The notes below the pieces were generated by a model. That model was given only the letters and a program-made list of their open reading frames with translations, was not told the origin of the DNA and did no database searches. The position numbers and the translations under genes are program-made. A stretch of DNA of 64,000 nucleotides, from positions 351 to 64,350 of the forward strand of contig CAVZTK010000021.1 in assembly GCA_963778155.1 (NCBI GenBank), in the 5' to 3' direction. Below are positions 1-29,379 of the stretch, piece by piece; position 1 is the stretch's first letter; each line of letters begins with the position of its first letter. This DNA is from an uncultured Chloroflexia bacterium (lineage in GTDB: Bacteria > Chloroflexota > Limnocylindria > Limnocylindrales > CSP1-4).

Positions 1-624
1 GGCGTGGATGCGCCTGGCCGTCTCGGCCGAGACGCGCGCCGGGCGCTCCCCGGCGACCGCGCAGAGGATGTCCACGTCGTGCGTGGCGAGGTCGACGGTG
101 ACGCCGACATCGCGGATCCGTGCCGGGAACGGGCCGGCGCGCCGGCTCGAGATCGCAAAGACGTCCGACAGCCAGCCCGACTCGAGCAGCCGCCCGAGCT
201 CGAGGATGGCGGGGTTGAAGCGCTCGATGTGGCCGACCTGGACCGGCGGTGCGCCCGGGGTCGTCGCGGCGGCGACGATCCGGTCGGCCTCGGCCGGGGT
301 CGCCGCCAGCGGCTTCTCGATGAGGACCGCGATGCCGCGCCCGAGCGCGGCCAGGGCGAGCGGCAGGTGCGCGGTGGTCGGGGCCGCGATGACGACCGCG
401 TCGAGGTCCGCCTCGGCCAGCATCGCGAGCGGCTCGGCGAACGCCTGGGCGCCGGACCGGGCGGCAGCCGCCCCGAGGGCCTCCGCGTCGAGGTCGGCGA
501 TGGCGACCAGACGCACGTCGGCCAGGCCGCGGAGGACGCGGAGATGGTTCCGGCCCATCGAGCCGAGGCCGATCAGCCCGGCACGCAGCTCGCGGTCGCC
601 GATCGGGGACCAGGCGGCGGTCAT
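1..624 (-). CDS. Gfo/Idh/MocA-family NAD(P)-dependent oxidoreductase (WbpB-like nucleotide-sugar 3-dehydrogenase); N-terminal 208 codons only, the 3' end lies beyond the window edge
   Basis: Open minus-strand frame from ATG 624 to position 1. It is absent from the ORF track because it runs off the edge. My translation, MTAAWSPIGDRELRAGLIGLGSMGRNHLRVL...VVIAAPTTAHLPLALAALGRGIAVLIEKPLA, shows the Rossmann and EKP motifs. ATGA overlap with the stop of the upstream aminotransferase. Confidence 0.8.
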   Translation of the reverse strand, partial: MTAAWSPIGDRELRAGLIGLGSMGRNHLRVLRGLADVRLVAIADLDAEALGAAAARSGAQAFAEPLAMLAEADLDAVVIAAPTTAHLPLALAALGRGIAVLIEKPLAATPAEADRIVAAATTPGAPPVQVGHIERFNPAILELGRLLESGWLSDVFAISSRRAGPFPARIRDVGVTVDLATHDVDILCAVAGERPARVSAETARRIHA

Positions 625-1725
625 CGGGCGGCGGCCCGTTCCGGGGCACGCTGGACGGCGGCACGCACCGAGGCGATGACGGTCGTCTGCTCCTCGTCGG
701 TGAGGCCCGGGAACATCGGCAGCGACAGGGAGTGCGCGGCGGCGTGGTCGGTCAGCGGCAGGTCGGCCTCGATGCCGCGCTCGAGGACGTACGGCTGGCG
801 GTGGACCGGGATCGGGTAGTAGATGCCGGTCGAGATGCCGGCGGCCGCGAGGCTCGCGACCACGCCATCCCGGTCGTCCTCGACGGCGATCGTGTACTGG
901 TGGAAGACGTGCGTCCGGCCCGGCCGGGGTGACCGGCGTCCGGATCGGCAGGTCGGCGAAGGCCGCGTCGTAGCGCGCCGCGATCGCGCGACGGCGTTCG
1001 GTGTTGCGCTCGAGCTTGTCGAGCTGGCACAGCCCGATCGCGGCCGCGATGTCGGTCAGCCGGAAGTTGTAGCCGAGGATGTCGTGGCGGTACCGCTCGC
1101 GCATCCCCTGGTTGCGGTAGAGCCGGATCCAGTCGGCGAGGCGGTCGTCGTCCGTGGTGATGAGGCCGCCCTCACCGGTCGTCATGTTCTTGGTGCCGTA
1201 CAGGCTGAACGCGCCGTGACCGAAGCTGCCGACCCGGCGGCCGCCGAACTGCGCGCCGTGCGCCTGGCAGGCGTCCTCGACGACGGCCAGCCCGTGACGG
1301 GCGGCGATGGCCCCGATGGCGTCCATGTCCGCCGGCAGGCCGAACAGGTGGACCGGGCAGATCGCCCGGGTCCGCGGCGTGATGGCCGCCTCGATCCGGT
1401 CGGGGTCGATCAGGTACGTGTCGGGCTCGATGTCGACGAAGACCGGGGTGGCGCCCGTGTACAGGATCGAGCTGACCGTCGCGTTGAAGGTGTGGCCGAC
1501 GGTGATGACCTCGTCGCCGGGCTCCAGCTCGAGGCCCGCGTAGATGCACATCAACGCGACCGTGCCGTTGCTCATCGCGATGGCGTGCTTGACCCCGATG
1601 AAGGCGGCGAACCGCTCCTCGAGCTCGACGACGCGCTTGCCGCCGGCCAGCATCCCGCTCTCGAGGACGGCGGTGACGGCGGCGATCTCTTCGGGCCCGA
1701 TATCGGGTCGTGCGACAGGAATCAT
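621..1725 (-). CDS. DegT/DnrJ/EryC1/StrS-family PLP sugar aminotransferase, reading frame broken once near 920
   Basis: N-terminal frame from ATG 1725 (my translation): MIPVARPDIGPEEIAAVTAVLESGMLAGGKRV...GTKNMTTGEGGLITTDD. The C-terminal 80 aa is track ORF 621..863 (ISTGIYYPIPVHRQPY...LSLPMFPGLTDEE). The two parts lie in different frames. The 1105-nt length is not a multiple of 3. Confidence 0.8.
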
Positions 1726-2393
1726 GCGGATACCCCCGGTCGATCCGGCGACGGCGCCCGCTCGCGGAGCGAGCCGTCCTCCGTGATGGATGTGTAGTGA
1801 CGATGGCACACGGCGCAAGCAAGCTCCAGGTCGGCGGCCGATCGCGGTGGGGCGGCGAGCCGACCGTTCGAGTCGACGAGCCGCTCGCCGCAGACGCAGA
1901 CCCAGCCGATCGCGCGAGCGGGATTGCCGACGACGAGCGTGTGGGCCGGGACGGGATGGGTCACGACCGACCCGGCGCCGACCATCGCGTACTCGCCGAC
2001 GTCGCATCCGGCGACGACGACCGCACCCGCGCCGATCGACGCGCCGAGGGCGATGTCGATCGGGGTGACGGTCCAGTCGGTGGCACGGGCAAGGCCGCCA
2101 TCCGCGTTCAGGGCGCGTGGTCGCCGGTCGTTGGTCAGGATCGCGCCGGGGCCGATGAAGACGCCGTCGCCGATGGTCACGCCGTGATAGATGAGCGCGC
2201 CGTTCTGGACCTTGACCCGGTCGCCGAGCGAGACGCCCTCATCGATGAAGGCGTCACGACCGATCACCGCGTCGCGGCCGATCCGGGCGCCGGTCCGGAG
2301 CTGGGCGCGATGCCAGACGCTCGTCCCGGGCCCGACGCTCACGTCGGGTTCGATATCCGCCGTCGCATGGATGCGCGCGGACGGGTCGATCAC
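1722..2393 (-). CDS. Hexapeptide-repeat (left-handed beta-helix) N-acetyltransferase, WbpD-like, with a C-terminal CxC...CxxC tail
   Basis: Track ORF 1722..2393. Hexapeptide repeats IGRDAVIGRDAFIDEGVSLGDRVKVQNGALIYHGVTIGDGVFIGPGAILTND and GAGAVVVAGCDVGEYAMVGAGSVV. Tail WVCVCGERL...CAVCHRHY. ATGA overlap with the downstream gene. Confidence 0.8.
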   Translation of the reverse strand: MIDPSARIHATADIEPDVSVGPGTSVWHRAQLRTGARIGRDAVIGRDAFIDEGVSLGDRVKVQNGALIYHGVTIGDGVFIGPGAILTNDRRPRALNADGGLARATDWTVTPIDIALGASIGAGAVVVAGCDVGEYAMVGAGSVVTHPVPAHTLVVGNPARAIGWVCVCGERLVDSNGRLAAPPRSAADLELACAVCHRHYTSITEDGSLRERAPSPDRPGVSA

Positions 2394-2567
2394 GGTGTGG
2401 CGCCTCCTCGTGGATCCCCGCCGATCCCTTGGGCGGTCGGTCGGGGATAAAATCTAGCCGAACATCCGGTTTCGGACGCGTGGCCCGCCAGTCCCGCTCG
2501 GAGCATGACCTTCGGTGCCGCGAGGCACCGCCTTATCGTCGTCTTACTCGTCGCGAAGCCTGCCGGG

Positions 2568-2580: not shown

Positions 2581-3390
2581 ATGTCCTCCGATGAACGTGG
2601 CCAGAGTCTGACCATCGTCCTGCCCGCCTACAACGAAGAGGCGCGCCTGGAGCCGGCGCTGGACGAGCTGTTCGGGTACCTGCGCCGGCAGGCGAGCTCG
2701 GCCGTGACGGCGCGCCGGGCGCAGCGCAGCTGCCGGGCGAGATCGAGGTGCTCGTCGTCGATGACGGGAGCGCCGACGGCACCGCGGCCCGTGTCCGGGC
2801 GCGGCCTGAGGCGCTCGCCGACCGGGGCGGCGATGGACTCTCCCTCGAGCTCCTGACGGTCCCGCACGGCGGCAAGGGCTCCGCGGTGAGGGCGGGGATG
2901 CTCGCCGCGGACGCGGACCTCCTGGTCTTCGCCGACGCGGACATGGCGACGCCGCCGGACCAGATTCCGCTGCTGGTCCGGGCGCTCCGGCGACCACGAC
3001 GTGGCGCTGGGCAGCCGGATCCAGCCCGACGGTCGGACATGCGGGCCAGCCAGCCGCTCTTCCGGCGCGCGCTCGGCAGGACGTTCCACTCGCTGGCCTC
3101 GATCTGGGCAGTGGGACCCGTCCAGGACACGCAGTGTGGGTTCAAGGGGTTCACGCGCGAAGCAGCCCACGATCTGTTCAGGCTCCAGCGAGTCTCCAGC
3201 ATCGTCTTCGACGTCGAGCTCATCTACCTTGCCCGCCGGCGCGGCTACTCGGCTGGCTCGTCGTGCCGATCCGCTGGGCCGACAGGCGTGGGTCGCGCAT
3301 GCACCCGGGCCCACGGCTCGCGATGAGGGTGGCGTGGGATCTTTTCCGGATCCCGCTCCTCCACCGCGACGTCACGTCGCGTCCGGCGCG
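2581..3390 (+). pseudogene. GT2 polyprenyl(dolichyl)-phosphate sugar synthase (ALG5/GtrB/Ppm-like), frame-disrupted at least four times
   Basis: Segments lie in three frames. MSSDERGQSLTIVLPAYNEEARLEPALDEL is in ORF 2515..2856. EIEVLVVDDGSADGT, LTVPHGGKGSAVRAG, VFADADMATPPDQI and DTQCGFKGFTREAA...VFDVELIYLARRRGY are in ORF 2748..3326. VVPIRWADRRGSRM is in ORF 3134..3628. The 3' boundary is approximate. Confidence 0.7.
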
Positions 3391-3399
3391 ACCAGACGC

Positions 3400-4491
3400 C
3401 CGCCGCCTGACCGTGGCTCTGGCTCGAGCGGCGTTGCCGATCCTCGCGATCGCCGTCTTCGCCATCGACCTCGGCCTCGTCCTCGCGTCCGCGGATCGAC
3501 GCTCGGCTACGACTTCCTGGCCTAGCCACTCGGCCGCCGCCCTGCTCGACGGCAAGCCGCCTACGACACGTCCGTCCAGGGCGCGGGCGGCTTCGGGATC
3601 TTCTTGTACCCGCCCCCGTTCCCGATGATCCTGCCGTTCGGGCTGCTGGCGGCCCGGCCGGGCTTGGCCTGGATCGGGCTGCTAGCGGCGGCTTCGCGAT
3701 CGGGACCGTGCTGATGCCGGTCTCGGGGCCTGCGCAGTGGCTGATCGTGCTGCTCGCGGGCCTCTCGTGGCCGTTCCTCTACGCCGTCAAGCTGGGCCAG
3801 GTCGGGCCGATCCTGCTGCTCCTGTTCGTGGTCGGCTGGCGCGGGCTCGACCAGCCCGGTGGTGCTCGGGCGTCGACGTCGCGCTGGGGGCGGCGATCAA
3901 GATCCAACCGGCTGGTGCTGCGTGTGGGCGTTCCTGACCGGACGACCGCGGGCCTGCTGTACGGGCGCTGTGCGTCGTGCTCGCCGCGGTGTCGTCACGC
4001 TGCCCTCGTCGGGTGGGCGCCTGGTCCGACTTCGTGTCGCTGATCGGCCGGGTGAGCGACCCGATCACCACGCCCCACAACTTCACGCCGGGCGCCGTGG
4101 TCTACCAGGCGGGCGTCTCGCGCGACACCGCGCAGCTGATCCAGTGGGTGACGATGGGCCTCTGCTGGTCGCGTTCGTCGCGGCGGCCCGCTGGCTGCCC
4201 GCCGCGCCGACCTTCCTCGTGGCGGTCGTCGCCAGCCAGCTCCTGTCGCCGATCCTGTGGGACCACTACGCGATGCTGCTGCTCCTGCCGGTGGCCTATC
4301 TCGTCGTAACGTGGCTGGACGTGGACGGTGCTGATCCCGCTGGCGACTCGTCCGTCCCGCTCGTCGTGTCGGATCGTCCCAGCGGTCGTCTACCCGATCG
4401 TATTCGGCGTGACGCTTTCCGCTGCTGGCCGCCGCTTCAAGGACCGGCGCGCGCGGCGGCGTTTGAGGCAAGCGCTCGACAGGTATCCTGA
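3400..4491 (+). pseudogene. GT87/DUF2029-type GT-C membrane glycosyltransferase, heavily frame-disrupted; boundaries approximate
   Basis: Fragments occur in all three plus frames. They include STLGYDFLA, GIFLYPPPFPMILPFGLL and PAQWLIVLLAGLSWPFLYAVKLGQVGPILLLLFVVGWR (ORF 3708..4043). Also AIKIQPAG and LVAFVAAARWLPAAPTFLVAVVASQLLSPILWDHYAMLLLLPVAYL (ORF 3859..4491). Confidence 0.55.
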
Positions 4492-4499
4492 CCGCGGTC

Positions 4500-5741
4500 T
4501 CGCACCCCGACCTCGGCGCCTACGCGTAGCGTCCGCACGTTCCGGCCGCCGGTCGGCTGGCTCCTGCGTCGCGATCGTCGTTCGGTCGTGTACCGCCTGT
4601 GCGAACTTCGACGCCGGCCGCGAGCGACCTGTTCTATCTCGCCGACTCGTTCCTGCACGGGCACACCTGGATCGACTTCGCGCCGGGCCGTTCGACGTGA
4701 TCCCGTTCGACGGCCACATCTACGTGCCGTTCGCGCCGTTCCCGGCGATCGCCGTCATGCCGCTGGTCGCGCTCATCGGCCCGGTGGTCGCGGACCATGG
4801 GGAGCCGAGATCAACGGCGCTCCTCGCGGCGGCGACCGTCGGCATGTGCTGGTGGCGGTCGGCCGGATCGGCGTCCAGCGGCTCCGCGACCGCCTGGCTG
4901 GCGCTGCTGCTCGGCTTCTCCACCCAGATCTGTGGGTCACGACCCGCGGCGGCGTGTGGCACACCGGCCACCTCGGTCGCGACGATCCTGCTGATGTTCC
5001 TGCTCGCCGAGATGTTCGGGCGCCAGCGCGCGGTGCTGATGGGGCTCCTCGTCGGCGCCGCGTTCCTGACCCGGGCGCCGCTCGCCTTCGCGGCACCCGT
5101 TCATCGGGCTGTGGCTGATCCCGACCGCGACCTACGCTGCGCCCTCCGGACGCCGGCGGCATCGGCGGCCGGATCGGCGATCGATCCCGTGGCGGGCTGG
5201 GTGCTGTTCGCGGTCGGCGTGCTCCCGTCGCTCGCCTTCTTCTTCGGTACAACCTCGATCCGCTTCGGCGATACCGCTGCAGTCCGGCTACGCGCTGGCC
5301 TCGCTGCCCGACTGGCTCCAGAACCTGCGTGATCAGGGCCTGTTCTCCACGTCGCACATCGGGATGAACCTCGACTACCTGTTCTGGAAGACTCCCGCGC
5401 TGACGGCGGCGTTCCCCGTACTTCCGCCCCGACGGCCTCGGGATGTCGGTGTTCGTGACCAGCCCGGCGCTGCTGCTCGCCGTCCGGGCGTCGTGGCGCG
5501 ACCGCCGTTCGTGGTTCCTGCTGATCGCCGCCGTCCTCGTGCTGATCCCGACGCTCCTGTACTACGGCGGCGGCTGGCTGCAGTACGGCTACCGCTACTT
5601 CCTCGACTCCATCCCGTTCATCTGGGCGCTCGTCGCCATGGGCATCGCGGCCCGCGGCTCGCTGAAGTGGTGGGCTGGCTCCTGATCGGGTGGGGGATCC
5701 TGATCGGCCTCGGCGGCGTGTACTGGGCGTATCACCTGTGA
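4500..5741 (+). pseudogene. GT-C membrane glycosyltransferase (PMT_2/ArnT-like), heavily frame-disrupted; N-terminus not resolved
   Basis: Fragments DLFYLADSFLHGHTWIDF, VIPFDGHIYVPFAPFPAIAVMPLVALIGP and ATILLMFLLAEMFGRQRAVLMGLLVGAAFLTRAPLAFAAP lie in ORF 4328..5332. FVTSPALLLAVRASWRDRRSWFLLIAAVLVLIPTLLYYGGGWLQYGYRYFLDSIPFIWALVAMG lies in ORF 5443..5685. The C-terminus is GWGILIGLGGVYWAYHL with the stop at 5741. Confidence 0.5.
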
Positions 5742-8083
5742 CCCCGCGACACCTGCCGAGGGGCCCGCTCCTCCTGCTGTTCGTGCTGTCCGGCGCGGCA
5801 GGCCTGATCTACGAGGTGGTCTGGGCGCGGCAGCTCGTGCTCGTCTTCGGCAACACGAGCCAGGCCGTGTCGACGATCCTCACCGGGTTCTTCGGCGGGC
5901 TCGCGATCGGCGGCTTCGTCGGCGGTCGGATTGCCGACCGGGTCCGGCGGCCGCTGCGGATGTACGGGATCCTCGAGCTCGTCCTGGTCGTCATCGTCGT
6001 CCTGACGCCGTTGAGCTTCCGGCTGATCGACGAGGTCGTATCGCGGCATCTACCCGAGCCTCTCGGACGTCGCCCGTCGCCCTCGCCCTCGTCCGGTTCG
6101 CGCTCGCGATCCTCGCGCTCGCGCCGGCGACGGTGCTGATGGGCGCCACGCTGCCGACGCTCACCCGCTACCTCTCGCGCGGACGGTCAGCTGATCGCCG
6201 GGGCGTTCAGCAGCTCTACGCGGCGAACACGATCGGCGCGATCCTCGGCACCGCGATCGCCGGGTTCGCGCTGATCGAGCTGCTCGGGCTCAGCGGGCGC
6301 ACTGGCGGTCGGCGCGGCGTGCTCGGCGATCGCGGAGTATCCGGCCTGTGGCTCGCACGCAAGGAGGGTGCGCCAACGGTCGCATCCCGCGCACGTGGAG
6401 GCGGTCTCGCCGGCACGCCCGTGGACCGGCCAGACGCGCCTCGCGCTGGCGATGGCCTTCGTCTCGGCTTGACGTCACTTGGTTACCAGACCCTTTGGAT
6501 CCGAATGCTCGCCTCGGGCACGGGCAACACGACGTACGTCTTCACGATCATCCTTGCGATGTTCCTTGGCGGCCTGGCCGTCGGCGCGTTGTTGTTCACG
6601 CTGATCCGCCGGTGGATGCGCGAACCCGGCGCGTTTCCTGGCGGCCAGCCAGGTGCTGGTCGGGGCGCTCGTCCTGTCCGGGATGGTCGCGTTCATCGCG
6701 AACCCGCCCGACTCCGGACCCGAGCAAGGTCCTCGACGCGCTCCGCCCCTGATCGCCTGGTCTGTTCCCGTCGTGCTTCTGACCACTGTCGTGCTCGGCC
6801 TGTCGTTCCCGGCGGCCTCGGCGCTGCTCGAGCAGGATCGGGAGCGTTCCGGCCGGAGCTCCGGTGCCTTCCTCGCCACGAACACGGTCGGTGCCATCGG
6901 CGGCAGCTTCATCGTCCCGTTCGTGCTCATCCCGACGCTCGGCGCGCCGCATGCGACCGCGCTCCTGGCGCTCGTCAACGTGGGTACCGGCGCAGCGATC
7001 GCGCTCGCGACACGGGCGCCATCGAGACACGGGCGCCTGGTCCGGTTCGTGACGTCGCCCCTGACCGTTTCGGCCTTCGCCGTCGTTGTCGGCGTCGCCA
7101 TCGTCGGCGCTTGGGTGACGCCCGATATCCTGATCTCTCCGAATGAAGCCCGCCTGCATCAGCGCGGGGCGGACATCTTCGCGACCGCCGAGGACGAGAT
7201 CGCCGCGGTCGAGGCGGGCCAGGTGTCCTCGACACCCGAGTTGTGGGTCGCAGGCACCTCGATGACGCTGCTCACGGTCGATGCCAGGTTGATGCCGATC
7301 CTGCCACTCATCGCCCGCCCGGCCTCGACCCGGGCGCTACGTGGTGGCATTCGGGATGGGTTCGGCGTTCCGCTCCGCCCTGATCGCCGGTCTGCGCACG
7401 GACGCCGTCGAGCTGGTCCCGTCCGTGCCGAAGATGTTCGGGTTCTATTACCCCGACGCGGCGACAGTCCTCGCGAACCCGAACGGACGGATCATCATCG
7501 CCGACGGTCGCAACCATCTCGAGTTGACGCAGGACCGCTTTGACATCATCGTCACCGACCCGCCACCGCCGATCGAGAGTTCTGGCGCATCGGTCATCTC
7601 CTCTCGGGAGTACTACCAGGCGGGTCACGACCACCTCACCCCCCACGGCATCATGATGGAGTGGGTCCCGTACGGCCAATCGATCGATGACTTCAAGGCC
7701 CACGTCCGCTCGTTCGCAGATGTGTTTCCCGAGGTCACGACGGTCTTCGGGCCAGGCGGCTATGGGATGTACATGCTCGGCTCGGATGCGCCCATCGCCT
7801 TCGATCACGCGTCCATCGCGGCCGTGCTCGCACGCCCGGGGGTCCTGGACGACATCTCGTCGGCGTACGACAGTCCAGAGCACACGGTGGCGGGCTGGAC
7901 GGACGGATCGACGCCCTGACCTGGCTCTCCGGCACGGCCGTCACCGACTTCGCGGGGACCGGGCCGATGGTCACTGACGACCGGCCGGTCTCGGAGTATT
8001 TCCTGATCCGGCGGCTGACCGGGCCGCCGTCGCCGAGAGCGGTCCCGGCGACCCTGCAGGCGGCGGCACGCGCGGGTGGCTGA
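5738..8083 (+). pseudogene. Fused polytopic-membrane / spermidine-synthase-like (class I methyltransferase fold) protein, multiple frame disruptions
   Basis: GTG 5738 forms a GTGA overlap with the previous stop. N-terminal TM bundle: LLLLFVLSGAAGLIYEVVWARQLVLVFGNTSQAVSTILTGFFGGLAIGG, LYAANTIGAILGTAIAGFALIELLGLSG, LGYQTLWIRMLASGTGNTTYVFTIILAMFLGGLAVG. C-terminal domain: DRFDIIVTDPPPPIESSGASVISSREYY (ORF 7341..7919). The last frame ends DDRPVSEYFLIRRL...AARAGG at TGA 8081-8083. Confidence 0.7.
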
Positions 8084-15661: not shown

Positions 15662-15668
15662 CGTCCGC

Positions 15669-19298: not shown

Positions 19299-19341
19299 CT
19301 TTGCCGCGCCGGGAAGCGATGCGGGCCGGACCCCGGCCCGA

Positions 19342-21599: not shown

Positions 21600-21604
21600 G
21601 CCGG

Positions 21605-22672: not shown

Positions 22673-23503
22673 GTGAGTACTTTCGGAGAGTTACCTTCTG
22701 ACACCCGTGCTCCGTACCGTTGGATCGATGAGCCGGTCGGCCGCCCTCACTGCTTGGACAGAAACGCTTTGACAGAGACGCGATCAACCACGGAGCCGCT
22801 CGTGGCGGTCATCATCCCGGCACTCAACGAGGTCGGGAAGATCGGTCGCGTCCTCGACAAGCTGCCGCGCGACGGCCGCTTCGAGGCGATCGTGGTCGAC
22901 GACGGCTCGACCGACGGGACCGGCGACGAGGCCCGGGCGCACGGCGCGGCCGTCGTCGTCCGGCACGAGGAACGTGGCGGCGTCGGGGCGGCGATCCGCG
23001 ATGGCTGGGCCGTGGGCCTGGCACGCAAGCGGCCGTACCTGGCGCTGCTGTCCGGTGACGACCAGCACGATCCCTCGCAGCTGGTCACGGCATTCGATCG
23101 ACTGCTGAGCGCCGACGCCGACTACGTGCAGGGGTCCCGCTGGATCAAGGGCGGTCGCGTGGTCGGGCGGACCGGTGGCCGCGGTCCGAGCACGCGGGTC
23201 TACTCGATCGTGTTCAGCGTCCTCGCGGGCCGCCACGTCACCGATGCCACCAACGGCTTCCGGGTCTTCAAGTCGTCGATGCTGACCGATCCGCGGATCC
23301 GGCTCGACCAGAGCTGGCTGACGAGCTACGACCTCGAGCCGTACCTGCTGTTCAAGGCGATCCGCTGTGGCTACAAGGTGATCGAGCACCCGGTCACCGT
23401 CGTCTACCACTCCACGGAGGGCTACACCAAGATGCGCGGGATCCGCGATTGGTGGCGGCTGTTCCGCCCGGCCATCTTCCTGCGGACGGGAGTGAAGCGA
23501 TGA
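22673..23503 (+). CDS. GT2 glycosyltransferase (DPM1-like polyprenyl-phosphate sugar synthase class); start uncertain (GTG 22673, TTG 22754 or TTG 22769)
   Basis: C-terminal part of track ORF 21383..23503. Motifs: VAVIIPALNEVGKIGRVLDKL, EAIVVDDGSTDGTGDEA, LALLSGDDQHDP, VTDATNGFRVFKSSML, YDLEPYLLFKAIRCGYKVIEHPVTVVYH. Confidence 0.75.
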   Translation: MSTFGELPSDTRAPYRWIDEPVGRPHCLDRNALTETRSTTEPLVAVIIPALNEVGKIGRVLDKLPRDGRFEAIVVDDGSTDGTGDEARAHGAAVVVRHEERGGVGAAIRDGWAVGLARKRPYLALLSGDDQHDPSQLVTAFDRLLSADADYVQGSRWIKGGRVVGRTGGRGPSTRVYSIVFSVLAGRHVTDATNGFRVFKSSMLTDPRIRLDQSWLTSYDLEPYLLFKAIRCGYKVIEHPVTVVYHSTEGYTKMRGIRDWWRLFRPAIFLRTGVKR

Positions 23504-24486
23504 TCCAGCCGGAGCGCTCGTTCGGCGGACGCCGGATCCTGGTCACCGGCGGCGCCGGCTTCGTCGGCGGGGCTGTCACCCGCCGGCTGGTCGAGGCGGG
23601 CGCCAAGGTCACCGTCCTCGATGACCTGTTCACCGGTCGAGCCGAGACGATCCCGACGGGCGCCGAGTTCGTGCAGGGATCGGTGACCGACGCCGACCTC
23701 GTGGACCGTCTGGTCGCCGAGAACGGGCTCATCTTCCACCTCGCCGCGCGCAACATCGCGGCCTCGACCAAGAACCCGCGTGACGACTTCGCGACCAACA
23801 TCGGCGGCACGCTGAACATCCTGCTGGCCGCCCGCAAGACGCGAGTCGACCGGATCGTCTACAGCTCGTCGGCGTCGATCTACGGCAACCCGCGCTCGAT
23901 CCCGATCAACGAGGACGACCAGATCGTGCCGCTGTCGCCCTACGCGGTCAGCAAGCTCGGTGGCGAGCACTACTGCTTCGCCTTCTACGAGAGCTTCGGG
24001 CTGCCGACCGCGTGCGTCCGCTACTCGAACGTGTACGGCCCCGGGCAGCGCCCGGACAACCCGTACTGCGGGGTCGTCTCGAAGTTCCTCGTCGACATCC
24101 ACGCCGGTCGCCCGGCCTCGATCCACGGCGACGGCGAGCAGACCCGCGACTACACCTACATCGATGACGCCGTCGAGGCGACGCTGCTGGCGGCGATCCA
24201 CCCCCGCGCCGAAGGTGAGACGTTCAACGTCGGGACCGGGATCGAGACATCCGTGAACGACCTCGCTCGCGAGATCGGCGTCGCGCTGGACCGGGACGTC
24301 GACATCGTCCACATCGACCGGCGCGATATCGACAACATCCGGCGACGCGTGGTCAACATCGAGAAGGCCCGCCGGATGCTGCGCTGGACCCCGCAGGTCA
24401 CGATGGAGACGGGTCTGGCCGCCACGGCGGCGTGGTTCCTCGCGTCGCCGTTCGTGGACGAGGTCCGCGAAGGCGCGTCGGTCTGA
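23500..24486 (+). CDS. NAD-dependent epimerase/dehydratase (extended SDR; UDP-sugar 4-epimerase / decarboxylase-like), intact
   Basis: ATG 23500 in track ORF 23449..24486 forms an ATGA overlap. Motifs: RILVTGGAGFVGGAVTRRLVEAGAKVTVLDDLFTG, IVYSSSASIYG, SPYAVSKLGGEHYC (YxxxK). Confidence 0.85.
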   Translation: MIQPERSFGGRRILVTGGAGFVGGAVTRRLVEAGAKVTVLDDLFTGRAETIPTGAEFVQGSVTDADLVDRLVAENGLIFHLAARNIAASTKNPRDDFATNIGGTLNILLAARKTRVDRIVYSSSASIYGNPRSIPINEDDQIVPLSPYAVSKLGGEHYCFAFYESFGLPTACVRYSNVYGPGQRPDNPYCGVVSKFLVDIHAGRPASIHGDGEQTRDYTYIDDAVEATLLAAIHPRAEGETFNVGTGIETSVNDLAREIGVALDRDVDIVHIDRRDIDNIRRRVVNIEKARRMLRWTPQVTMETGLAATAAWFLASPFVDEVREGASV

Positions 24487-24495: not shown

Positions 24496-25435
24496 TCAGG
24501 CGAGGGTCGCCGCCGGCGGCCGCGACTCCGGCAGAGGGATCGCGAGCGTCGGCGACCCACCCTGCCGGCGGGCGTCGGCGCGGTCCCGCCACCACACGAT
24601 GAACGGGATCGGCGCGTAGATGAGGCTGCCCCAGTAGAGCGCGGGGATGGCGACGATGGCGGCGGCGGCACGGCTCCACGGACGCCGGACGGCGAGCAGG
24701 CCGCAGGCGACGATCAGCCGGACCGGGAACGGCACCGGGATCATCGGCCCGATGTCACGACCGTAGGCGTCGACCAACAGCCGGACCCACTCGACCCACA
24801 GGCCGGCCCATGGCAGCGTGATCAGCACGAGGGCGGCGAACGCCACCGCGAACTGACGCCAGTGGCGGGGGTCGAGCGCGAGGACCGGAGACAGCTTGGC
24901 CAGCGTGGCGATCGCGAGCGGCCAGACCGGTCCCTCGCGCACCGCCGAGGACGATGGCCGCGCCGATCAGCAGATTGATGTTTCCACCGCCGACCTCGAG
25001 CGCCACGATCGGCCAGGCGCCGAGCACCAGGGCGCTCCACCAGGCGCCGGTGATGATCCGAGCAGCGGCCAGGTCCGCGACGACCATCACCCCGTGGAGC
25101 ATCGGCAGCGGCAGCCACGTGACTGCGGCCAGGAGCAGGGCGACCGGCGGCGCGTAGTAGAAGTTGTCCCACAGTGGGTCGCGACCGTAGACGACACCGC
25201 CGTCGCGCAGGGCATCCCCGGCCCTGTCGTAGATCAGCCGCAGGTCCGAGCCGACGTCCCAGCCGCTCAGGGTCCGGTAGTAGAAGATCGTCAGGAAGAT
25301 GACGACACCGATCACCGCGGCGGCGAACTGCCAGTGGCCCGGCATCCGTCGCGTGACGTCGGCCCTGGACGGGAGGCGGCGCCGCCAGCCGGCAGATGCG
25401 TCGCCCAGATCCGCGATCCCCGCTACCTGGGTCAT
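24496..25435 (-). CDS. GT87/DUF2029-like membrane glycosyltransferase, one frame break near 24945
   Basis: The N-terminal part starts at ATG 25435 in track ORF 24755..26383. It reads MTQVAGIADL...FAAAVIGVVIFLTIFYY, DLRLIYDRAGDALRDGGVVYG, FYYAPPVALLLAAVTWLP, GGGNINLLIGAAIVLG. The C-terminal part is ORF 24496..24942 (PLAIATLAKLSPVLAL). Confidence 0.6.
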
Positions 25436-26383
25436 GGCTGGGCGAACCCGTCCTCGCGGTCTCCGGCTGTGTCGGAGACGGCCAAGATGGAGGTCAGGCA
25501 GCGACCAGCTGCGCGCCGGGCGGTCGATGACGCCGATGAGCGGCAGGGCGGCCATCCAGATCGAGAGGGCCGAGGACTGGTAGAGGGCGAGGGCCGCCCA
25601 GCCGGCCGCGATCGGGACCGTCCAGAGTCGCCCGGTCCGGCCGCCCCAGATGAGCAGCGCGACCGACATCACGATCCGGACCGGCAGCGGCACCGGCACC
25701 AGCGGGACCGGCGACGGCGCCCCGGCGTTGCCCTGGGCGAAGGCGATGAAGTCGGCCCACGCCCCCGGTGCCAGGATCACCGAGACGGCGAGCAGGGCCG
25801 CGGTCGTCCCGATCGAGATGGCCAGGTTGCGCCACTCTGCTCGTGCGGCGAACCAGAGGATGCCGATCCCGGGGCCGATCTTCGACAGGAAGACGACGGC
25901 CCACGCCGCCGGCCAGCGCAGGCCGAGGACGATCGCGGCGGCGACGATGGTCTGCGGATTGCCGATGCCGGCCAGCGCGACCGGGTTCGCCAGGGGGTTG
26001 TCGAACCCGGTGGCGTTGATCGCGACGATGCCGATGGCCAGGATCGGCAGGCTCCACCAGCGCGTGGCAACCCAGAAGGCGACCCAGACGAGGGTCATCC
26101 AGACGACGATGAACGGCGCCCAATCGAGCGTGCCGAGGATCTGCCCGAGCGGCGGCGGGTAGATGTAGAACGAGTCGAGGTTCGCGCCCCACGTCGTGCC
26201 GTAGTAGTGGACTGCATGGCCGGCGCGCCAGTAGAGGTCGGCGTCGATGGGGCGTGCCGCAGTCGTCGCGAACCCGAGACCGAGCGCGAGGCCGATGACG
26301 AGGAAGACGACGAACCCAGCACGATCCAGCGCTCGTCGCAACGTGAGCGATCGGGTGGCTCGCTGGATCCCAGCCATCGGCAA
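25432..26383 (-). CDS. GT87/DUF2029-like membrane glycosyltransferase; 3' end inferred (probable frame break near 25500, or a true fusion with the next gene)
   Basis: N-terminal 300 aa of track ORF 24755..26383: DADLYWRAGHAVHYYG, FYIYPPPLGQILGTLDW, GNPQTIVAAAIVLGLRWPAAWAVVFLSKIGPGIG. There is no in-frame stop before the next gene. An alternative frame ends at TGA 25432-25434, which would form an ATGA junction with ATG 25435. Confidence 0.55.
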
Positions 26384-26413
26384 ACCTTAGCCCAGCCGTG
26401 ACACGGCTCGAGG

Positions 26414-27418
26414 TCAGCCCACAGTACCAGTGGCCATGATCCCTTCGGCCGGGGCCGCGGAGGAGATCGGGTGTTCGTCGGCGACGGGCCAGGCGAGCGG
26501 GGCCATCGCGGCCAGAAGCAGGGTGAACCAGTTCACGTTCACCACCGGGGAGCCGGCCAGCATCGTCACCACAGCAACGAACCAGGCGAGACCCGGGCGG
26601 TTCCGGAGCACAGCGATGAGGACCACCCCGATGATCAGGCTCGCGATCGGAAGCAGCGTGGCGATGTCGTCCGGGACGCCGATGAACCGGGCCATGCCGG
26701 CCAGGCTGAGGGCACTCGTCCGGCCGCTCGATGTCCCGGCGATGATCCTGAGGTACTCGACATGCGCGTCCAGACCGGCCCCGATCACGCTCACGGCCAG
26801 GACCGCGAGACCGGTGATGACGAACGCCCGCACCGCCGTCCAGCGCCGCTGCGTGACCAGCCACCAGGCGAGGATGGCCGGGGTCACCTTGAGCGCGGTC
26901 GACAGCGCGAGCAAGGCGCCTGCGGCGGTGTCCCGGCGCCGGCTCAGGAGGTACCAGGCGGCCGTGATGGCCGCGACGATCAGCGCGTTGAGGTTGCCCA
27001 CCCCGATCTCGTACACGATCGGGATGCACAGGACCAGCATCGCCAGTCCGATGATCACGGGCCGTCGCCGCAGCAGGGCCACGCCCGTCGCGACCAGGGC
27101 GACGATGCAGCAGATCCACCAGACATAGGCTCCGGCGTCGCCGAGCAGGGCGAGCGGCCGGAAGACGACCGCGATCGGCGGCGGTGAGAGCAACGGGACC
27201 GTCCAGTACGGCGGGTTGAGGTCGACCGGTCGATCGCCAGGCGACAGGGCGTAGAGCGGATGACCGGCATTCAGGCGCTCGCCGGCCGCCAGGTAGGTGA
27301 ACGCGTCGCCCGGCACCAGCCCGCGATCGAAGTAGCGGATGAGGATCGCGGCGATCACGCCCACCGCGATGGCCGGGATCGCGATCCGCCAGATCGAGCG
27401 GGCGTCCATGGCGCGCAT
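26414..27418 (-). CDS. GT87/DUF2029-type GT-C membrane glycosyltransferase (intact, 334 aa)
   Basis: ATG 27418 lies inside track ORF 26414..28261. Motifs: MRAMDARSIWRIAIPAIAVGVIAAILI, GDAFTYLAAGERLNAGHPLYALSPGDRPV, PLLSPPPIAVVFRPLA, GNLNALIVAAITAAWYL, LLALSTALKVTPAILAWWLVTQRRW. Confidence 0.65.
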   Translation of the reverse strand: MRAMDARSIWRIAIPAIAVGVIAAILIRYFDRGLVPGDAFTYLAAGERLNAGHPLYALSPGDRPVDLNPPYWTVPLLSPPPIAVVFRPLALLGDAGAYVWWICCIVALVATGVALLRRRPVIIGLAMLVLCIPIVYEIGVGNLNALIVAAITAAWYLLSRRRDTAAGALLALSTALKVTPAILAWWLVTQRRWTAVRAFVITGLAVLAVSVIGAGLDAHVEYLRIIAGTSSGRTSALSLAGMARFIGVPDDIATLLPIASLIIGVVLIAVLRNRPGLAWFVAVVTMLAGSPVVNVNWFTLLLAAMAPLAWPVADEHPISSAAPAEGIMATGTVG

Positions 27419-27426: not shown

Positions 27427-28341
27427 TCACGTCACGCGGGGAAGGCGATCGGTCATGTCGTCTCGCTCGGTGCCGGGACGTCGGCAAGGCGGGGCGCCCC
27501 CTCCTCCCGGCCGTGGCGTGGCCGTGGCCGCCGGCCGCCTTCCCAGCCAGGCCACGACCGGCGCGAGGGCGAGCGGGACGTCGAGCAGGGAGTAGGACAG
27601 CGGCACGTTCGAGTTCCGGAGAACGGTCACGTAGTCGAGCCAGAGCGCGCCGAAGGGGATGCACAGCAGGACGAACACGAGGAGCGTCCGATTCCAGCCG
27701 CGTGACCCGATCCCGATCAGGGCGAATGGGAAGAGCGACGGCTTGATCAGCACCAACGGCCCGGGCCAGCGCCACATGACAGCGGCTGCGATCGCGGCCA
27801 CGACCCACATGCCCGGGTTGCCGTACAGGATCAGCGCCGGCGTCCGCGGCCACATCGCGATGAATGCGAGCAGCGGCCAGGTCCACGGCGCCGGTCGGAG
27901 GGCGATCAACACCCAGACGATGATCACCAGCGGGATCGCCCACCACAGGACTGCCGGCAGGACGGTGAACGGGACGAGCAGCCAGAGGATGACCGGCGGG
28001 TACAGCGGGTCGCCATCCATCACGGTCGTCGGACCGGCGAGCTGGCGGGGCAGGTAGAACTGCCCGGTGTGCAGCCAGCGTTCGGTGTGGTCGAGGTACT
28101 GGCGGAAGTCCACGCCGATCCCGTCGTGAGCGATCACGATCGTGGTCAGGATGATCGTCCACGCCACCGCGATCAGCAGGACCGCGCCGGTCGTGCTGAG
28201 GACGATCAGCCGGCCCGGCGCGGAGTCGAGGATCGTCGGCCTCGCCCAGGGTCTCGGCCACAGGCGCCGGAGGGCGAGGGGAACGCCTCGGAGCCCGGTC
28301 TCAGACGCGGCCGGACGCCCAGTACCGCTCTGCGGCTCCAT
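27427..28341 (-). CDS. Short GT87/DUF2029-like membrane protein (304 aa)
   Basis: Track ORF 27427..28341. Motifs: GIGVDFRQYLDHTERWLHTGQFY, GDPLYPPVILWLLVPFTVLP, GNPGMWVVAAIAAAVMWRWPGPLVLIKPSLFPF. Confidence 0.55.
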   Translation of the reverse strand: MEPQSGTGRPAASETGLRGVPLALRRLWPRPWARPTILDSAPGRLIVLSTTGAVLLIAVAWTIILTTIVIAHDGIGVDFRQYLDHTERWLHTGQFYLPRQLAGPTTVMDGDPLYPPVILWLLVPFTVLPAVLWWAIPLVIIVWVLIALRPAPWTWPLLAFIAMWPRTPALILYGNPGMWVVAAIAAAVMWRWPGPLVLIKPSLFPFALIGIGSRGWNRTLLVFVLLCIPFGALWLDYVTVLRNSNVPLSYSLLDVPLALAPVVAWLGRRPAATATPRPGGGGAPPCRRPGTERDDMTDRLPRVT

Positions 28342-29379
28342 CGACCTCGCCGATCCCGGCGGTCATCACGCCGTGCTTCCGGACCGCGTCGGCCATCGCC
28401 CTGGTGCCGTCGAACAGACGCTCGATCTGGCTCTCGTACAGCCCGATGCCCATGATCTTGCGCTCGAGCTGGTCGGTGATGTCGGCGTACTCCGGCGAGA
28501 TGCTGACATCGGCCGGGAGCGCGCCGAGCGGGTCGGCGTCGCCCAGGTCGCCGAGGCCACGGAAGTCGTTCCACCAGGCGTACGGGAAGTCCTCGTAGAA
28601 CGCGATGATCCCGGCGTAGTCGGGCCCCGGCATCACCCAGCGGCGGCCTTCCTGGAGGAGGCGGACGCCGACCTCGCGGCACAGCTGGTGGTCGACGTGA
28701 CCGCCGACACCGAGCGGGAAATAGACCTTCTGGGGCTCGAGCCGCGCGATCTCCTGGCGGAGCATGTCGTACGGCGCGTCGTCGTCGGCGCGCGGCATCC
28801 CGAGCAGCTCGTCGTCGCCCTCGTAGCCCCGGAAGACGGCGTCGGGCAGGTCGAGGAAGACGATCGACGCCTCGGCGAAGTAGGCGTAGCGCTCGTCTTC
28901 GATCCGGCGTCGGGCCATCAGGTCCCCGGCCGCCGCCGCAGCGATGATCTCGTCGGTATAGACCGCGCCCTGGGTCGGCAGGTCGTCGACGACCGGCTGG
29001 TCGGCCAGCGACGCGTTCCGGATGCTCGCTCGGCGATACCACGACGAGCGCTGCCAGAAGCGCTTGGCGGCCTGATCGGCGTCGGATTGGGTCGCCTCGA
29101 GCTGGTCATCCGTCGCCGCCCACGCCGGCACGAGCGCGGCGGTCGGCCAGTCGGCGGCGATGTCCGATCGGTTGAACGCCTCGGTGGCCGGATACATGGC
29201 CTTCGAGCCGAAGCCGAGCGCCTCGCGCTGGTACGGGCGTCAGGCGATCGCGCCGATCCGTCCCCGGAGAAGACGGTCACGATGGTCACGGTCTGGCCGA
29301 GCTCACGCAGGCTCGCGATCAGCCCGCCGCAGGACAGTGCGACATCGTCCGGATGCGGGGCGACGAAGACGTGGGTCAT
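28301..29379 (-). CDS. PIG-L/LmbE-family N-acetyl-sugar deacetylase, one frame break near 29245
   Basis: The N-terminus MTHVFVAPHPDDVALSCGGLIASLRELGQTVTIVTVFSGDG is in the frame of ORF 28918..29499, from ATG 29379. The remainder is ORF 28301..29197 (VYFPLGVGGHVDHQLCREV, ISPEYADITDQLERKIMGIGLYESQ). Confidence 0.75.

Follow-up and report, generated by a model that had tools for sequence, protein, structure and literature searches.

A modular 29-kb gene cluster of a Limnocylindria bacterium, most likely serving cell-surface glycan decoration with lipid-linked sugars

Introduction

In the Agl pathway of Haloferax, AglD and AglS add further sugars to a protein-bound glycan. In the GT87 mannosyltransferase PimE, D58 is the catalytic base and Y62 its partner, while K195 binds the phosphate (PMC12041525). 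The concept of three-component glycosylation systems has been defined (PMC11127046), and the locus described here resembles the Gtr/Arn-type members of this group, in that every GT2 is accompanied by a set of sugar-modifying enzymes and one or more GT-C transferases of its own. It is a 29-kb glycan gene cluster found in the window (the whole 64-kb stretch of DNA that was analysed), and it continues beyond the left edge of the window. The source is an uncultured soil bacterium of the phylum Chloroflexota, class Limnocylindria (Candidatus Limnocylindria), not an actinobacterium; hence, the analogy with the mycobacterial PimE is one of mechanism, not of orthology. Our literature searches found no characterised equivalent of this locus.

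Results and Discussion

Twelve GT-C candidates and three GT2 enzymes

A preliminary description, made from the window alone, had proposed about twelve GT-C membrane glycosyltransferases (nine GT87-like and three others) and three GT2 genes, and these counts were borne out. The twelve polytopic candidates, each with 7-12 hydrophobic segments, comprise five PimE-like GT87 proteins, four short GT87-like proteins, one ALG6/ALG8-like protein and two members of families that have no model; all twelve were placed among the GT-C proteins by sequence, profile or fold. The gene positions given earlier were also right: the + strand positions 2581, 8076, 9366, 14170, 18557 and 22673 are ATG, GTG or TTG start codons and all seven minus-strand positions are stop codons, only 3400 and 4500 being approximate.

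Using Pfam on frame-following translations of the window genes, we found GT87 (PF09594) above cutoff in four genes, at 8076-9369 (+ strand; 8.6e-23, full model), 9366-10493 (+; 6e-15), 21605-22642 (-; 7.5e-8) and 26414-27418 (-; 1.9e-23), the last two being paralogues (hhalign, 5e-41). The translations of 3400, 4500, 14170, 20655, 24496 and 27427 had no Pfam match, and 25432 had only a sub-threshold one to GT87 (2e-3). Profile-profile comparison of orthologue alignments brought 3400, 20655, 24496, 25432 and 27427 into the GT87 group with 95-99.5% probability, and connected all nine paralogues. The strongly frameshifted gene at 3400-4500 (+) matched the family of 26414 (99.5%, 5e-23) and, below cutoff, the NCBIfam PimE model (6e-11). 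The four other proteins are short (about 300 aa). The one at 20655-21602 (-; about 315 aa), which keeps the D-x-x-x-Y motif and the Lys, matched 25432 (98.2%), 27427 (98.0%) and 26414 (95.8%); the one at 24496-25436 (-; one frame change near 24945) matched 25432 (99.4%), 27427 (96.9%) and 26414 (95.8%); the one at 25432-26386 (-) matched 3400 (98.9%) and 26414 (97.9%); and the one at 27427-28341 (-) matched 20655 (98.0%), 3400 (96.6%) and 9366 (95.2%). Direct Pfam GT87 matches occur in 6 of the 23 members of this short subfamily, which has no direct match to PimE. A long-form GT87 profile, with the 26414 protein as first sequence and the orthologues of 3400 included, matched the solved PimE (9DM5) over its full length (E=1.1e-21), with PIG-M second. 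The equivalents of the PimE residues D58, Y62 and K195 are conserved across the nine paralogues.

The three remaining candidates were assigned by other means. First, C19342 (19342-20655, -) matches Pfam Alg6_Alg8 (3e-9, 37 bits for a cutoff of 25) and marginally GT87; of its 15 orthologues, 14 match Alg6_Alg8 and 9 match GT87. It had been called DUF2029/Gpi18-like, of which the GT-C assignment stands, whereas the Gpi18-like label is not borne out at family level. Second, C14108 (14170-15591, +), with 3-4 frame changes and no match in Pfam or NCBIfam, had been left as an unassigned polytopic protein. Its AlphaFold2 model (pLDDT 87, pTM 0.88) retrieved, with Foldseek, ten PDB matches at E<=1e-3, all ten of them GT-C and including STT3 subunits (6e-7 to 1e-5), ArnT (8e-5), PglB (7e-4), AftD and DPY19. 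From this predicted structure, we are confident that C14108 has the GT-C fold, of an STT3/ArnT-like kind. Its family counts 23,553 clusters, and in one natural protein (P0326) a C14108-type module is fused to a GT87 domain. Third, C4500 (4500-5720, +; frameshifted) is a conserved polytopic protein, whose 1971 homologues are nearly all named 'hypothetical protein' and whose 24 orthologues tested with Pfam gave no match to any glycosyltransferase family. The best 17 PDB matches of its model (pTM 0.78) are all GT-C, with Pmt4 first (E>=4e-3, TM 0.35-0.47); thus, C4500 is a probable GT-C protein, with weaker support than C14108. It had been described as PMT_2/ArnT-like: the fold is weakly favoured by Foldseek, and the family label finds no Pfam match. 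C4500 and C14108 represent two large families of putative membrane glycosyltransferases that have no Pfam or NCBIfam model and no name in the databases.

The three GT2 genes, GT2a (2581-3400, +), GT2b (18557-19345, +) and GT2c (22673-23503, +), all pass Pfam PF00535 (2e-19, 2e-18 and 6e-18, respectively). GT2a is spread over three frames, its intact 264-aa orthologue (locus L014) mapping to frames 1/3/2. Judged by sequence, the three proteins most resemble polyprenyl- or dolichyl-phosphate sugar synthases: ArnC for GT2a (4e-10); PgfS, DolP-hexose transferase, AglJ, ArnC and PpgS for GT2b; AglJ (5e-22), PpgS (2e-19) and DolP-hexose transferase (1e-17) for GT2c. All these scores are far under the NCBIfam equivalog cutoffs, and none of the three putative synthases has a convincing transmembrane segment.

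Accessory genes

At the left edge, a trio not itemised in the preliminary description (1-2453) comprises a GFO/IDH/MocA-type NAD oxidoreductase (1-610, -; Pfam 2e-23 plus the C-terminal domain), the 3' end of which passes the edge; a DegT/DnrJ/EryC1 sugar aminotransferase (640-1727, -; 1.6e-126, full model; one frame change near 910) with sub-cutoff NCBIfam matches to PseC (1e-89) and ArnB (1.5e-86); and a left-handed beta-helix acetyltransferase (1722-2393, -; Hexapep 5e-24). These enzymes may form a WbpB/WbpE/WbpD-like trio making acetamido sugars. Overlooked earlier was a 2.3-kb frameshifted gene (5737-8070, +) for a fused MFS/spermidine-synthase membrane protein (Pfam Spermine_synth; NCBIfam NF037959, 120.9 bits for a cutoff of 40 in the orthologue from locus L042), the sole transporter-like protein of the locus.

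The other accessory genes were as announced. They encode an acyltransferase-3 family membrane O-acyltransferase (10524-11500, -; 1.7e-27); an Acetyltransf_6 (CelD/FemAB-like) GNAT (11673-12903, +; PF13480 1e-30), in five frame pieces to which intact orthologues of 423-455 aa map; a retaining GT4 glycosyltransferase (12905-14111, +; Glycos_transf_1 7e-42); a nucleotide-sugar 6-dehydrogenase (15618-16878, +; TIGR03026, 259 bits for a cutoff of 189.8; N-terminal, central and C-terminal UDPG_MGDP_dh domains); two SDR epimerase/dehydratases, one (16878-17904, +; Epimerase 1e-37) in four frame pieces with 82-90% identity to an intact 340-aa orthologue (L014), the other an epimerase/4,6-dehydratase (23497-24486, +; Epimerase 1.5e-59); a class I SAM methyltransferase (17900-18560, +; Methyltransf_23 1e-13); and a PIG-L/LmbE-family de-N-acetylase (28301-29397, -; 1.4e-16), of 369 aa in relatives, with one frame change near 29243, the two frames of which show 76-90% identity to an intact orthologue (L042).

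A conserved backbone enclosing swappable cassettes

The comparison of 80 related loci revealed a conserved backbone, in the order GT2, GT87, GT-C (C4500), fused MFS/spermidine synthase, GNAT, GT4, GT-C (C14108) and, at the right-hand end, PIG-L, which encloses swappable cassettes made of a GT2, sugar-nucleotide enzymes and GT-C. C4500 adjoins the fused MFS/spermidine synthase in 54 of 54 loci, the GNAT adjoins the GT4 in 55 of 55, and C14108 accompanies the GT4 in 49 of 55. Both main cassettes are present in the window. In cassette X (the 6-dehydrogenase, the first SDR, the methyltransferase, GT2b and C19342), GT2b occurs with the dehydrogenase and epimerase/methyltransferase in 21 of 21 loci and with C19342 in 20 of 21. 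In cassette Y (GT2c, the second SDR and the GT87 protein at 26414), GT2c occurs with Epi2 in 8 of 8 loci and with the GT87 protein in 7 of 8. The GT4-to-PIG-L interval shows 21 gene orders among 32 loci, and the median number of GT-C-like genes in relatives is 6 per 21 kb. The 29-kb stretch is a genuine modular gene cluster. The long extracytoplasmic, lipid-carrier-dependent assembly line postulated earlier is supported as regards lipid-linked GT-C assembly, but a single linear line fits these comparisons less well than modular decoration.

Proposed pathway and alternative readings

The most likely role of the cluster is to decorate, on the outside of the membrane, a glycan of the cell surface with sugars delivered in lipid-linked form, and we put at roughly 70% the probability that it is the main surface-glycan locus of this bacterium, built on lipid-linked monosaccharide donors. 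We infer donors, flipping, reaction order, acceptor and product as follows. First, in the cytoplasm, the trio, the 6-dehydrogenase, the two SDR enzymes and the methyltransferase would make modified nucleotide sugars. Second, at the inner membrane face, the GT4, the PIG-L protein and the GNAT would build and edit a primer. Third, the three GT2 enzymes would charge polyprenyl phosphate with single sugars. Fourth, the carriers would be flipped; no flippase of known type (GtrA/SMR/MATE) occurs in the window, which leaves the fused MFS/spermidine-synthase protein as the only candidate in the locus. Fifth, at the outer face, the twelve GT-C-fold transferases would pass the lipid-carried sugars to the growing glycan, which the acyltransferase-3 would O-acylate. 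From one species to another the cassettes are exchanged while the backbone stays, so that the glycan produced probably varies and is exposed at the surface.

As stated earlier for the locus, no Wzx, Wzy, WaaL, ABC exporter or teichoic-acid gene was found in it, and none was found in the rest of the 64-kb window. The window has no recognisable priming phosphoglycosyltransferase, ligase (LCP/WaaL) or other exporter either, so that the first and last steps of the pathway are either absent or not recognised.

Alternatively, the locus might glycosylate an S-layer or other surface protein, with C14108 as oligosaccharyltransferase or C4500 as PMT-like O-glycosyltransferase, and the GT2/GT-C cassettes extending the protein-bound glycan as AglD/AglS do. 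Cassette X, with its dehydrogenase, methyltransferase, GT2 and GT-C, indeed parallels AglM/AglP/AglD/AglS of Haloferax, the dehydrogenase matching AglM (6e-36) below cutoff, as GT2c does AglJ, its best NCBIfam match; furthermore, STT3 subunits are the best structural matches of C14108, which also matches PglB, and Pmt4 tops those of C4500. However, the lipid-modifying ArnT fits C14108 almost equally, the C14108 consensus lacks the WWDxG motif, and its C-terminal extracytoplasmic alpha/beta domain has only about 135 residues. Moreover, the window offers no priming enzyme for a polyprenyl-PP-oligosaccharide, and nine of the twelve GT-C proteins resemble PimE, the family of which is known to use lipid-anchored acceptors. 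We therefore regard a protein acceptor as unlikely, and favour a membrane-anchored or wall-linked glycan.

It is still less plausible that two unrelated systems are neighbours here, the GT4, PIG-L and GNAT making a bacillithiol- or mycothiol-like thiol and the GT2/GT-C proteins alone a glycan. Among proteins of solved structure, BshA (9e-29) and MshA (8e-21) are the nearest to the GT4; BshB and MshB share a superfamily with PIG-L, and MshD is a GNAT. However, PimB' (3e-19) and PimA (8e-18), which start lipoglycans, are likewise close relatives of the GT4; the match of PIG-L to BshB1 is faint (34 bits for a cutoff of 182.5) and covers the N-terminal motif only; and the locus has no BshC/MshC-type cysteine ligase. 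The constant flanking of the GT4 by the GNAT, its frequent flanking by C14108 and the position of PIG-L at the end of the locus, after the GT-C cassettes, also tie these genes to the glycan cluster.

Frame disruptions

About half of the genes lack an uninterrupted ORF in the window, which has at least 27 supported frame disruptions within 2.6-29.3 kb. As the orthologues from short-read assemblies are single intact ORFs, these frameshifts are assembly errors, not gene decay. Although the disruptions are not located at homopolymers, a decaying relic made of pseudogenes is highly improbable, since the fragments retain 60-90% identity on either side of every junction, up to five shifts occur inside one 1.2-kb gene that bears no other damage, the high third-position GC and the coding signal continue across all fragments, and the housekeeping genes fhs, folD and hutU elsewhere in the window are broken up likewise.

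Gene content of the locus

From left to right, the locus encodes a GFO/IDH/MocA oxidoreductase (running off the window edge), a DegT aminotransferase and a hexapeptide acetyltransferase; a GT2 glycosyltransferase (GT2a, 2581) and the polytopic proteins C3400 and C4500 (named by their window starts); a fused MFS/spermidine synthase (MFS/SpeE, ~5737-8070), GT87 proteins starting at 8076 and 9366, an acyltransferase-3, an Acetyltransf_6 GNAT and a GT4; the polytopic protein C14108 (14170-15591), an NDP-sugar 6-dehydrogenase, an SDR epimerase, a methyltransferase, GT2b (18557), C19342, C20655 and a GT87 protein at 21605; then GT2c (22673), a second SDR epimerase/dehydratase (Epi2, 23497-24486), C24496, C25432, a GT87 protein at 26414, C27427, a PIG-L protein and a PCMT, the last a conserved neighbour, probably unrelated. 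In NCBIfam, the NDP-sugar 6-dehydrogenase (TIGR03026) and the fused MFS/SpeE (NF037959), a gene missing from the preliminary description, scored above their cutoffs. The plus-strand coordinates of that description are true start codons, except 3400 and 4500, and its minus-strand coordinates turned out to be stop codons.

The first three genes (1-2453, minus strand) resemble the WbpB/WbpE/WbpD route to 2,3-diacetamido sugars, and from their presence the glycan locus reaches past the left window edge. In one related locus (L031), the DegT/GFO pair (74% identity) is found across PCMT, on its other flank. As had been anticipated from the sequence, no Wzx, Wzy, WaaL, ABC exporter or teichoic-acid (Tag/Tar) protein was found among the Pfam matches (1-30 kb and the main ORFs of 30-64 kb). 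Priming phosphoglycosyltransferases were likewise absent from these matches, and the 64-kb window has no LCP ligase; the locus does not show the signatures of an O-antigen, capsule or teichoic-acid cluster.

Frame disruptions

With a GC content of about 70%, raw ORF lists of the window are unreliable. Frames were detected by plotting GC3 for each frame and by a Viterbi path on codon usage; both showed the plus-strand coding signal to switch frame repeatedly at 2.6-8.3 kb and 11.7-18.6 kb, and the family searches were run on frame-following translations. Because the Viterbi caller over-split genes (it placed a false break in the dehydrogenase at 15.6-16.8 kb, which is mostly in one frame according to its orthologues, and also flipped strand within an 1108-aa ORF), the frame calls were re-based on orthologue tblastn. 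When aligned to the window, single intact ORFs from short-read assemblies (related loci L003, L014 and L042) fall into two to five frames, and their identity is 60-90% on either side of each junction. Orthologue mapping found the GNAT in five pieces, the SDR epimerase in four, GT2a in three and PIG-L in two. At least 27 frame junctions between 2600 and 29300 are backed by at least three orthologue queries each (orthologue-supported examples being 12033, 12101, 12486, 12589, 13040, 17052, 17200, 17549 and 29243).

Housekeeping genes of the region 47500-57900, namely those of formate-THF ligase (fhs), folD and urocanase (hutU), are fragmented likewise. Since these genes are broken too and the related short-read assemblies have intact ORFs, we reject pseudogene decay of the cluster and conclude that the disruptions are sequence errors across the whole window. 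Their pattern resembles what errors of consensus or basecalling leave in an assembly from long reads or mixed strains; homopolymer error was ruled out, the longest runs at the junctions (2-4) equalling the background. The string TCGAC is present in several junction windows. The hutU gene is split by an in-frame TGA (56869-56871), its halves sharing one frame (ORFs 56110-56868 and 56872-57876), and this TGA may reflect either an erroneous substitution or recoding.

GT-C glycosyltransferases

All GT-C candidates possess 7-12 hydrophobic segments. Together with Pfam, hhalign and the predicted folds, this supports the earlier count of about twelve GT-C proteins, eleven being well supported and C4500 moderately so. 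When compared with Pfam, four polytopic proteins (8076, 9366, 21605 and 26414) passed the gathering threshold of GT87 (PF09594), one (C19342) matched Alg6_Alg8 and, marginally, GT87, one was sub-threshold and six had no match. The window copies falling below the PF09594 threshold are C3400, C20655, C24496, C25432 (18.3 bits versus 25) and C27427, the last four of which form a short GT87-like subfamily (~300 aa), where 6 of 23 orthologues or paralogues passed Pfam GT87 (best 6.5e-16).

Using hhalign on orthologue alignments built from 80 related loci, we found that the nine genes first described as GT87-like do make up one connected set (95-99.5%). The links are C3400 with the 26414 protein (99.5%), C25432 with C3400 (98.9%), C24496 with C25432 (99.4%), C20655 with C25432 (98.2%) and C27427 with C3400 (96.6%). 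A long-form profile (A8), combining the proteins at 26414, 21605 and 9366 with orthologues of C3400 and of the 8076-9369 gene (GT87_8019), matched the solved structure of PimE (9DM5) over its full length (E=1.1e-21; profile 5-331 to chain residues 24-362), and its second-best solved relative was the GPI mannosyltransferase PIG-M. The short-subfamily profile (A6) gave no significant match, to PimE or otherwise, among PDB chains, and is linked to GT87 by hhalign alone (95-99%).

The catalytic base of PimE is D58, which Y62 keeps in position, and the donor phosphate is bound by K195 (PMC12041525). The Asp, at the tip of the first extracytoplasmic loop, is aligned in eight of the nine window paralogues; the corresponding region of the ninth (C3400) is garbled by a window frameshift, and the Asp is invariant across A8, including the intact C3400 orthologues. 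At the Y62 position (+4 from the Asp) the paralogues carry Tyr, Phe or His. The donor-phosphate Lys is aligned in seven of the nine paralogues; the remaining two also have it, misaligned. By these alignments, the catalytic Asp/Tyr/Lys positions of PimE are conserved in the GT87-like paralogues.

The three other polytopic proteins, C4500, C14108 and C19342, showed no hhalign link to the GT87 group, and their sequence profiles, as well as that of the GNAT, gave nothing significant against PDB chains. C19342 matched Alg6_Alg8 (GT57, PF03155) with 37 bits (cutoff 25), as did 14 of 15 orthologues, and its profile aligned to solved ALG6 with E=1.7 only. Its initial assignment as Gpi18-like is not supported at family level, Mannosyl_trans2 (PIG-V/Gpi18, GT76) being unmatched in both the window protein and 15 orthologues.

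C14108 belongs to no Pfam or NCBIfam family. It was Pfam-silent in 24 orthologues and ten divergent representatives, none of which matched the STT3 signature. An AF2 model built from homologues (pLDDT 87.2, pTM 0.88) displays a C-terminal alpha/beta domain. All ten Foldseek PDB matches at E<=1e-3 were GT-C proteins, among which STT3 (6e-7), ArnT (8e-5), AftD (4e-4), DPY19 (5e-4) and PglB (7e-4), with TMq values of 0.48-0.58; C14108 is thus predicted to adopt a GT-C fold. An exhaustive profile search placed 23,553 clusters in its family (14,046 at E<=1e-10). One of the divergent representatives (P0326, 909 aa) carries a C14108-type module (profile 1-381) fused at its C-terminal side to a Pfam GT87 domain (2.6e-15), which may be either a Rosetta-stone hint that the two families cooperate or a gene-calling merge.

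C4500, too, has no Pfam or NCBIfam family, the sole match being a sub-cutoff one (21 bits) to the LA_3751/LA_3752 putative glycosyltransferase family. The PMT_2/ArnT-like identity proposed at first was not borne out at family level, as PMT_2 (PF13231; GT39/GT83) was unmatched in 24 orthologues. Its AF2 model (pTM 0.78, pLDDT 70.7) retrieved GT-C proteins in all of the top 17 Foldseek positions (Pmt4, AftB, AglB, ALG12, PimE and ArnT among them), yet the best E-value was only 4e-3 and TM values were 0.35-0.47. The C4500 and C14108 families have more than 1,600 close homologues each, almost all called 'hypothetical protein' wherever a source names them. These two families without a name (GT-C for C14108, probable GT-C for C4500) and the short GT87-like subfamily are new elements.

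GT2 proteins and modular organization

Three polyprenyl-phosphate sugar synthases had been proposed. GT2a, GT2b and GT2c all pass PF00535, which upholds the GT2 family, whereas their likeness to the synthases (best NCBIfam matches: ArnC, PgfS, AglJ, PpgS and DolP-hexose transferase) is far below the equivalog cutoffs (25-79 bits versus 325-529). None has a convincing transmembrane segment, a trait in which they differ from GtrB and resemble human DPM1 or, in mycobacteria, the catalytic domain of Ppm1.

Relatives of the GT4 occur solely in Candidatus Limnocylindria/Limnocylindrales and 'uncultured Chloroflexia' MAGs (73-93% amino-acid identity). Limnocylindria (= Ellin6529) are uncultured and have genomes of ~2.4 Mb with 69% GC (PMC10608941). 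Synteny reveals a conserved backbone, GT2a-C3400-C4500-MFS/SpeE-GNAT-GT4-C14108 … PIG-L-PCMT, in which GT4 is adjacent to the GNAT in 55/55 loci and to C14108 in 49/55, MFS/SpeE to C4500 in 54/54, and GT2a, C3400 and C4500 to one another in most loci. Two variable cassettes are inserted into it. The first (X) is composed of the dehydrogenase, the epimerase, the methyltransferase, GT2b, a short GT87-like gene in some arrangements, and C19342; GT2b is accompanied by the dehydrogenase and the epimerase in all 21 loci, and by C19342 in 20 of the 21. The second (Y) comprises the 26414 GT87 gene, GT2c and Epi2, GT2c occurring with Epi2 in 8/8 loci and with the 26414 gene in 7/8. Each GT2 synthase candidate is therefore genetically linked to a GT-C gene (GT2b-C19342, GT2c-GT87_26414 and GT2a-C3400-C4500). 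Extra GT87-like genes, also variable, are scattered in the backbone.

The GT4-to-PIG-L interval, as seen in relatives within 10-kb flanks, shows 21 gene orders in 32 loci and spans 1.2-9.5 kb; in the window it measures 14.2 kb and holds both cassettes. Per 21 kb, the median number of GT-C-like genes in relatives is six. In L004, L006, L042, L044-L046, L057 and other loci, an extra short GT87-like gene resembling C27427 (~42-48% identity) stands between C4500 and MFS/SpeE. This place is empty in the window, and is another variable slot of the backbone.

Proposed function and comparison with known pathways

In the best-supported reading, the locus assembles or decorates a glycan outside the cytoplasm with monosaccharides donated by polyprenyl-phosphate carriers; we favour a membrane- or wall-anchored glycan as acceptor. 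Three Gtr/Arn-like modules would operate around the conserved backbone (for the concept, see PMC11127046). The likeness of the GT4 to BshA, MshA, PimB' and PimA, combined with PIG-L and GNAT, suggests a GlcNAc-type primer that would be de-N-acetylated and then re-acylated. We propose, by analogy with LtaA, that the fused MFS/SpeE flips the primer or the donors, as it is the only transporter-like protein of the backbone. LtaA is an MFS glycolipid flippase.

The logic of the locus matches that of the LM/LAM, Gtr/Arn, GPI and ER-lumen pathways; no enzyme does so at equivalog level, and the defining flippase is missing. First, the mycobacterial PIM/LM/LAM pathway (PimA/PimB' GT4, Ppm1 GT2, PimE and MptC GT87, and further GT-Cs) shares with the locus a cytoplasmic GT4 start (the locus GT4 being related to PimA and PimB'), a polyprenyl-phosphate-sugar GT2 (putative here), several PimE-type GT87 proteins outside the membrane and an acyltransferase. 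The locus differs in belonging to Chloroflexota, in having three GT2s instead of one and in being clustered and modular rather than dispersed, and it adds ALG6/8-like and STT3/ArnT-like GT-Cs, a PIG-L deacetylase, a GNAT and the fused MFS/SpeE. It shows no sign of a phosphatidylinositol anchor, and NCBIfam gave no equivalog-level match to the mycobacterial enzymes. Second, the three-component systems (GtrA/GtrB/Gtr*, ArnC/ArnEF/ArnT and the Citrobacter GT136 system; PMC11127046) also couple a synthase (a candidate one in the locus) to its cognate GT-C, diversify the donor through auxiliary sugar-modifying enzymes and vary by serotype-like cassettes. Unlike them, the locus has three cassettes and up to twelve GT-Cs together, and no separate Wzx/Wzy or ABC-dependent backbone pathway to be decorated is visible in the window. 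It also has no GtrA/SMR/MATE flippase, these Pfam families being absent from the frame-following translations of 1-30 kb, where no free space is left for an extra small gene, and from the rest of the window.

Third, eukaryotic GPI-anchor and ER-lumen N-glycan assembly (PIG-A, PIG-L, DPM1, PIG-M/V/B, ALG3/9/12, ALG6/8/10) matches the locus in enzyme logic, from a GT4 through a PIG-L-family de-N-acetylase and flipping to serial GT-C reactions using Dol-P-sugars made by DPM1-type GT2s. The likeness does not go beyond superfamily level, the PIG-L match is confined to the family domain, and no GPI inositol-lipid or ethanolamine-phosphate enzyme was seen at the locus.

Alternatively, the locus could be a protein glycosylation system. 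The archaeal Agl N-glycosylation pathway (AglB, AglJ, AglD, AglS, AglM, AglP) offers counterparts to the STT3-like GT-C, the AglJ/AglD-like GT2s, the AglM-like dehydrogenase and the methyltransferase and, by analogy, a GT-C adding the last sugar from a Dol-P donor. All these matches are sub-cutoff, with no sign of a protein acceptor, and we regard protein glycosylation as unlikely because the C14108 family consensus is devoid of the WWDxG motif (the nearest string being PQPWGSWFEF). A bolder form of the membrane-anchored glycan, which we hold to be somewhat less probable still, is a GPI/LAM-like lipoglycan of Limnocylindria made by a route parallel to both eukaryotic GPI and mycobacterial LAM: the GT4 product would be processed by the PIG-L-type de-N-acetylase, flipped by the MFS protein and extended serially by DPM1-fed GT-Cs, including the two unnamed families; serotype-like cassette swaps would vary the product, and the fused MFS/SpeE would be a new flippase for glycolipids or polyprenyl-phosphate-sugars. 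The primer logic of GPI and PIM synthesis is also that of mycothiol and bacillithiol, and the backbone GT4 is closest to BshA and MshA (~1e-21 to 1e-29), PimB' and PimA; a thiol-like GT4/PIG-L/GNAT system merely adjoining the glycan GT2/GT-C genes is nevertheless very improbable, given that PIG-L reaches 34 bits against BshB1 (cutoff 182.5), that the locus has no BshC/MshC-type cysteine ligase and no BshA/B/C or MshA/B/C/D equivalog, and that PimA/PimB' are nearly as near to the GT4.

Significance

Limnocylindria are an abundant uncultured class of soil and freshwater, and to our knowledge there is no experimental knowledge of their cell envelope. The locus supplies a concrete, testable parts list for their surface glycan. 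It indicates that PimE-type GT87 proteins (on predicted chemistry), usually discussed for Actinobacteria, are heavily used in another monoderm phylum. The STT3/ArnT-like GT-C family (~23,500 clusters with no Pfam or NCBIfam model), the second unnamed polytopic family and the short GT87-like subfamily are targets for biochemistry and curation, and the invariant pairing of MFS/SpeE with GT-Cs provides an initial functional clue to this orphan fused family. That the cassettes vary hints at a surface antigen under selection in soil populations, with phages or predators as conceivable agents. Our literature search on Limnocylindria glycosyltransferases, Chloroflexi lipoglycans and the fused MFS/spermidine synthase returned nothing specific on the locus, on Limnocylindria envelope glycans or on the role of MFS/SpeE; new aspects are the phylum, how dense and modular the locus is, the two unnamed families (one GT-C, one probable GT-C) and the short GT87-like subfamily.

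Surroundings of the locus

The 30-64 kb region is made of housekeeping genes (DnaB, LexA, histidine utilisation and folate enzymes). Encoded there too, at 42735-46058 (minus strand), is a polytopic protein of 1108 aa with a Pfam match to DUF2298 (3.3e-7) and a sub-cutoff match to TIGR03662 (Chlor_Arch_YYY). Despite the C4500 motif 'YYGGGW', hhalign finds no relation between this protein and the GT-C families of the locus; it may be a further envelope-related membrane enzyme outside the present finding. The stretch 33941-38500 has a lower GC content (0.625-0.655 versus ~0.70 elsewhere) and long non-coding calls of the codon model (33941-35041 and 35656-36887), which adjoin an AAA_16/AAA_22 ATPase ORF (36907-38484, minus strand), and it may be a foreign or mobile segment. 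Finally, an ORF at 31437-32909 (minus strand), adjoining an HD-domain protein (33151-34053), joins DUF5317 (8e-19) to an MFS_1 half-transporter (7e-16) and may be two genes merged through a frame error.
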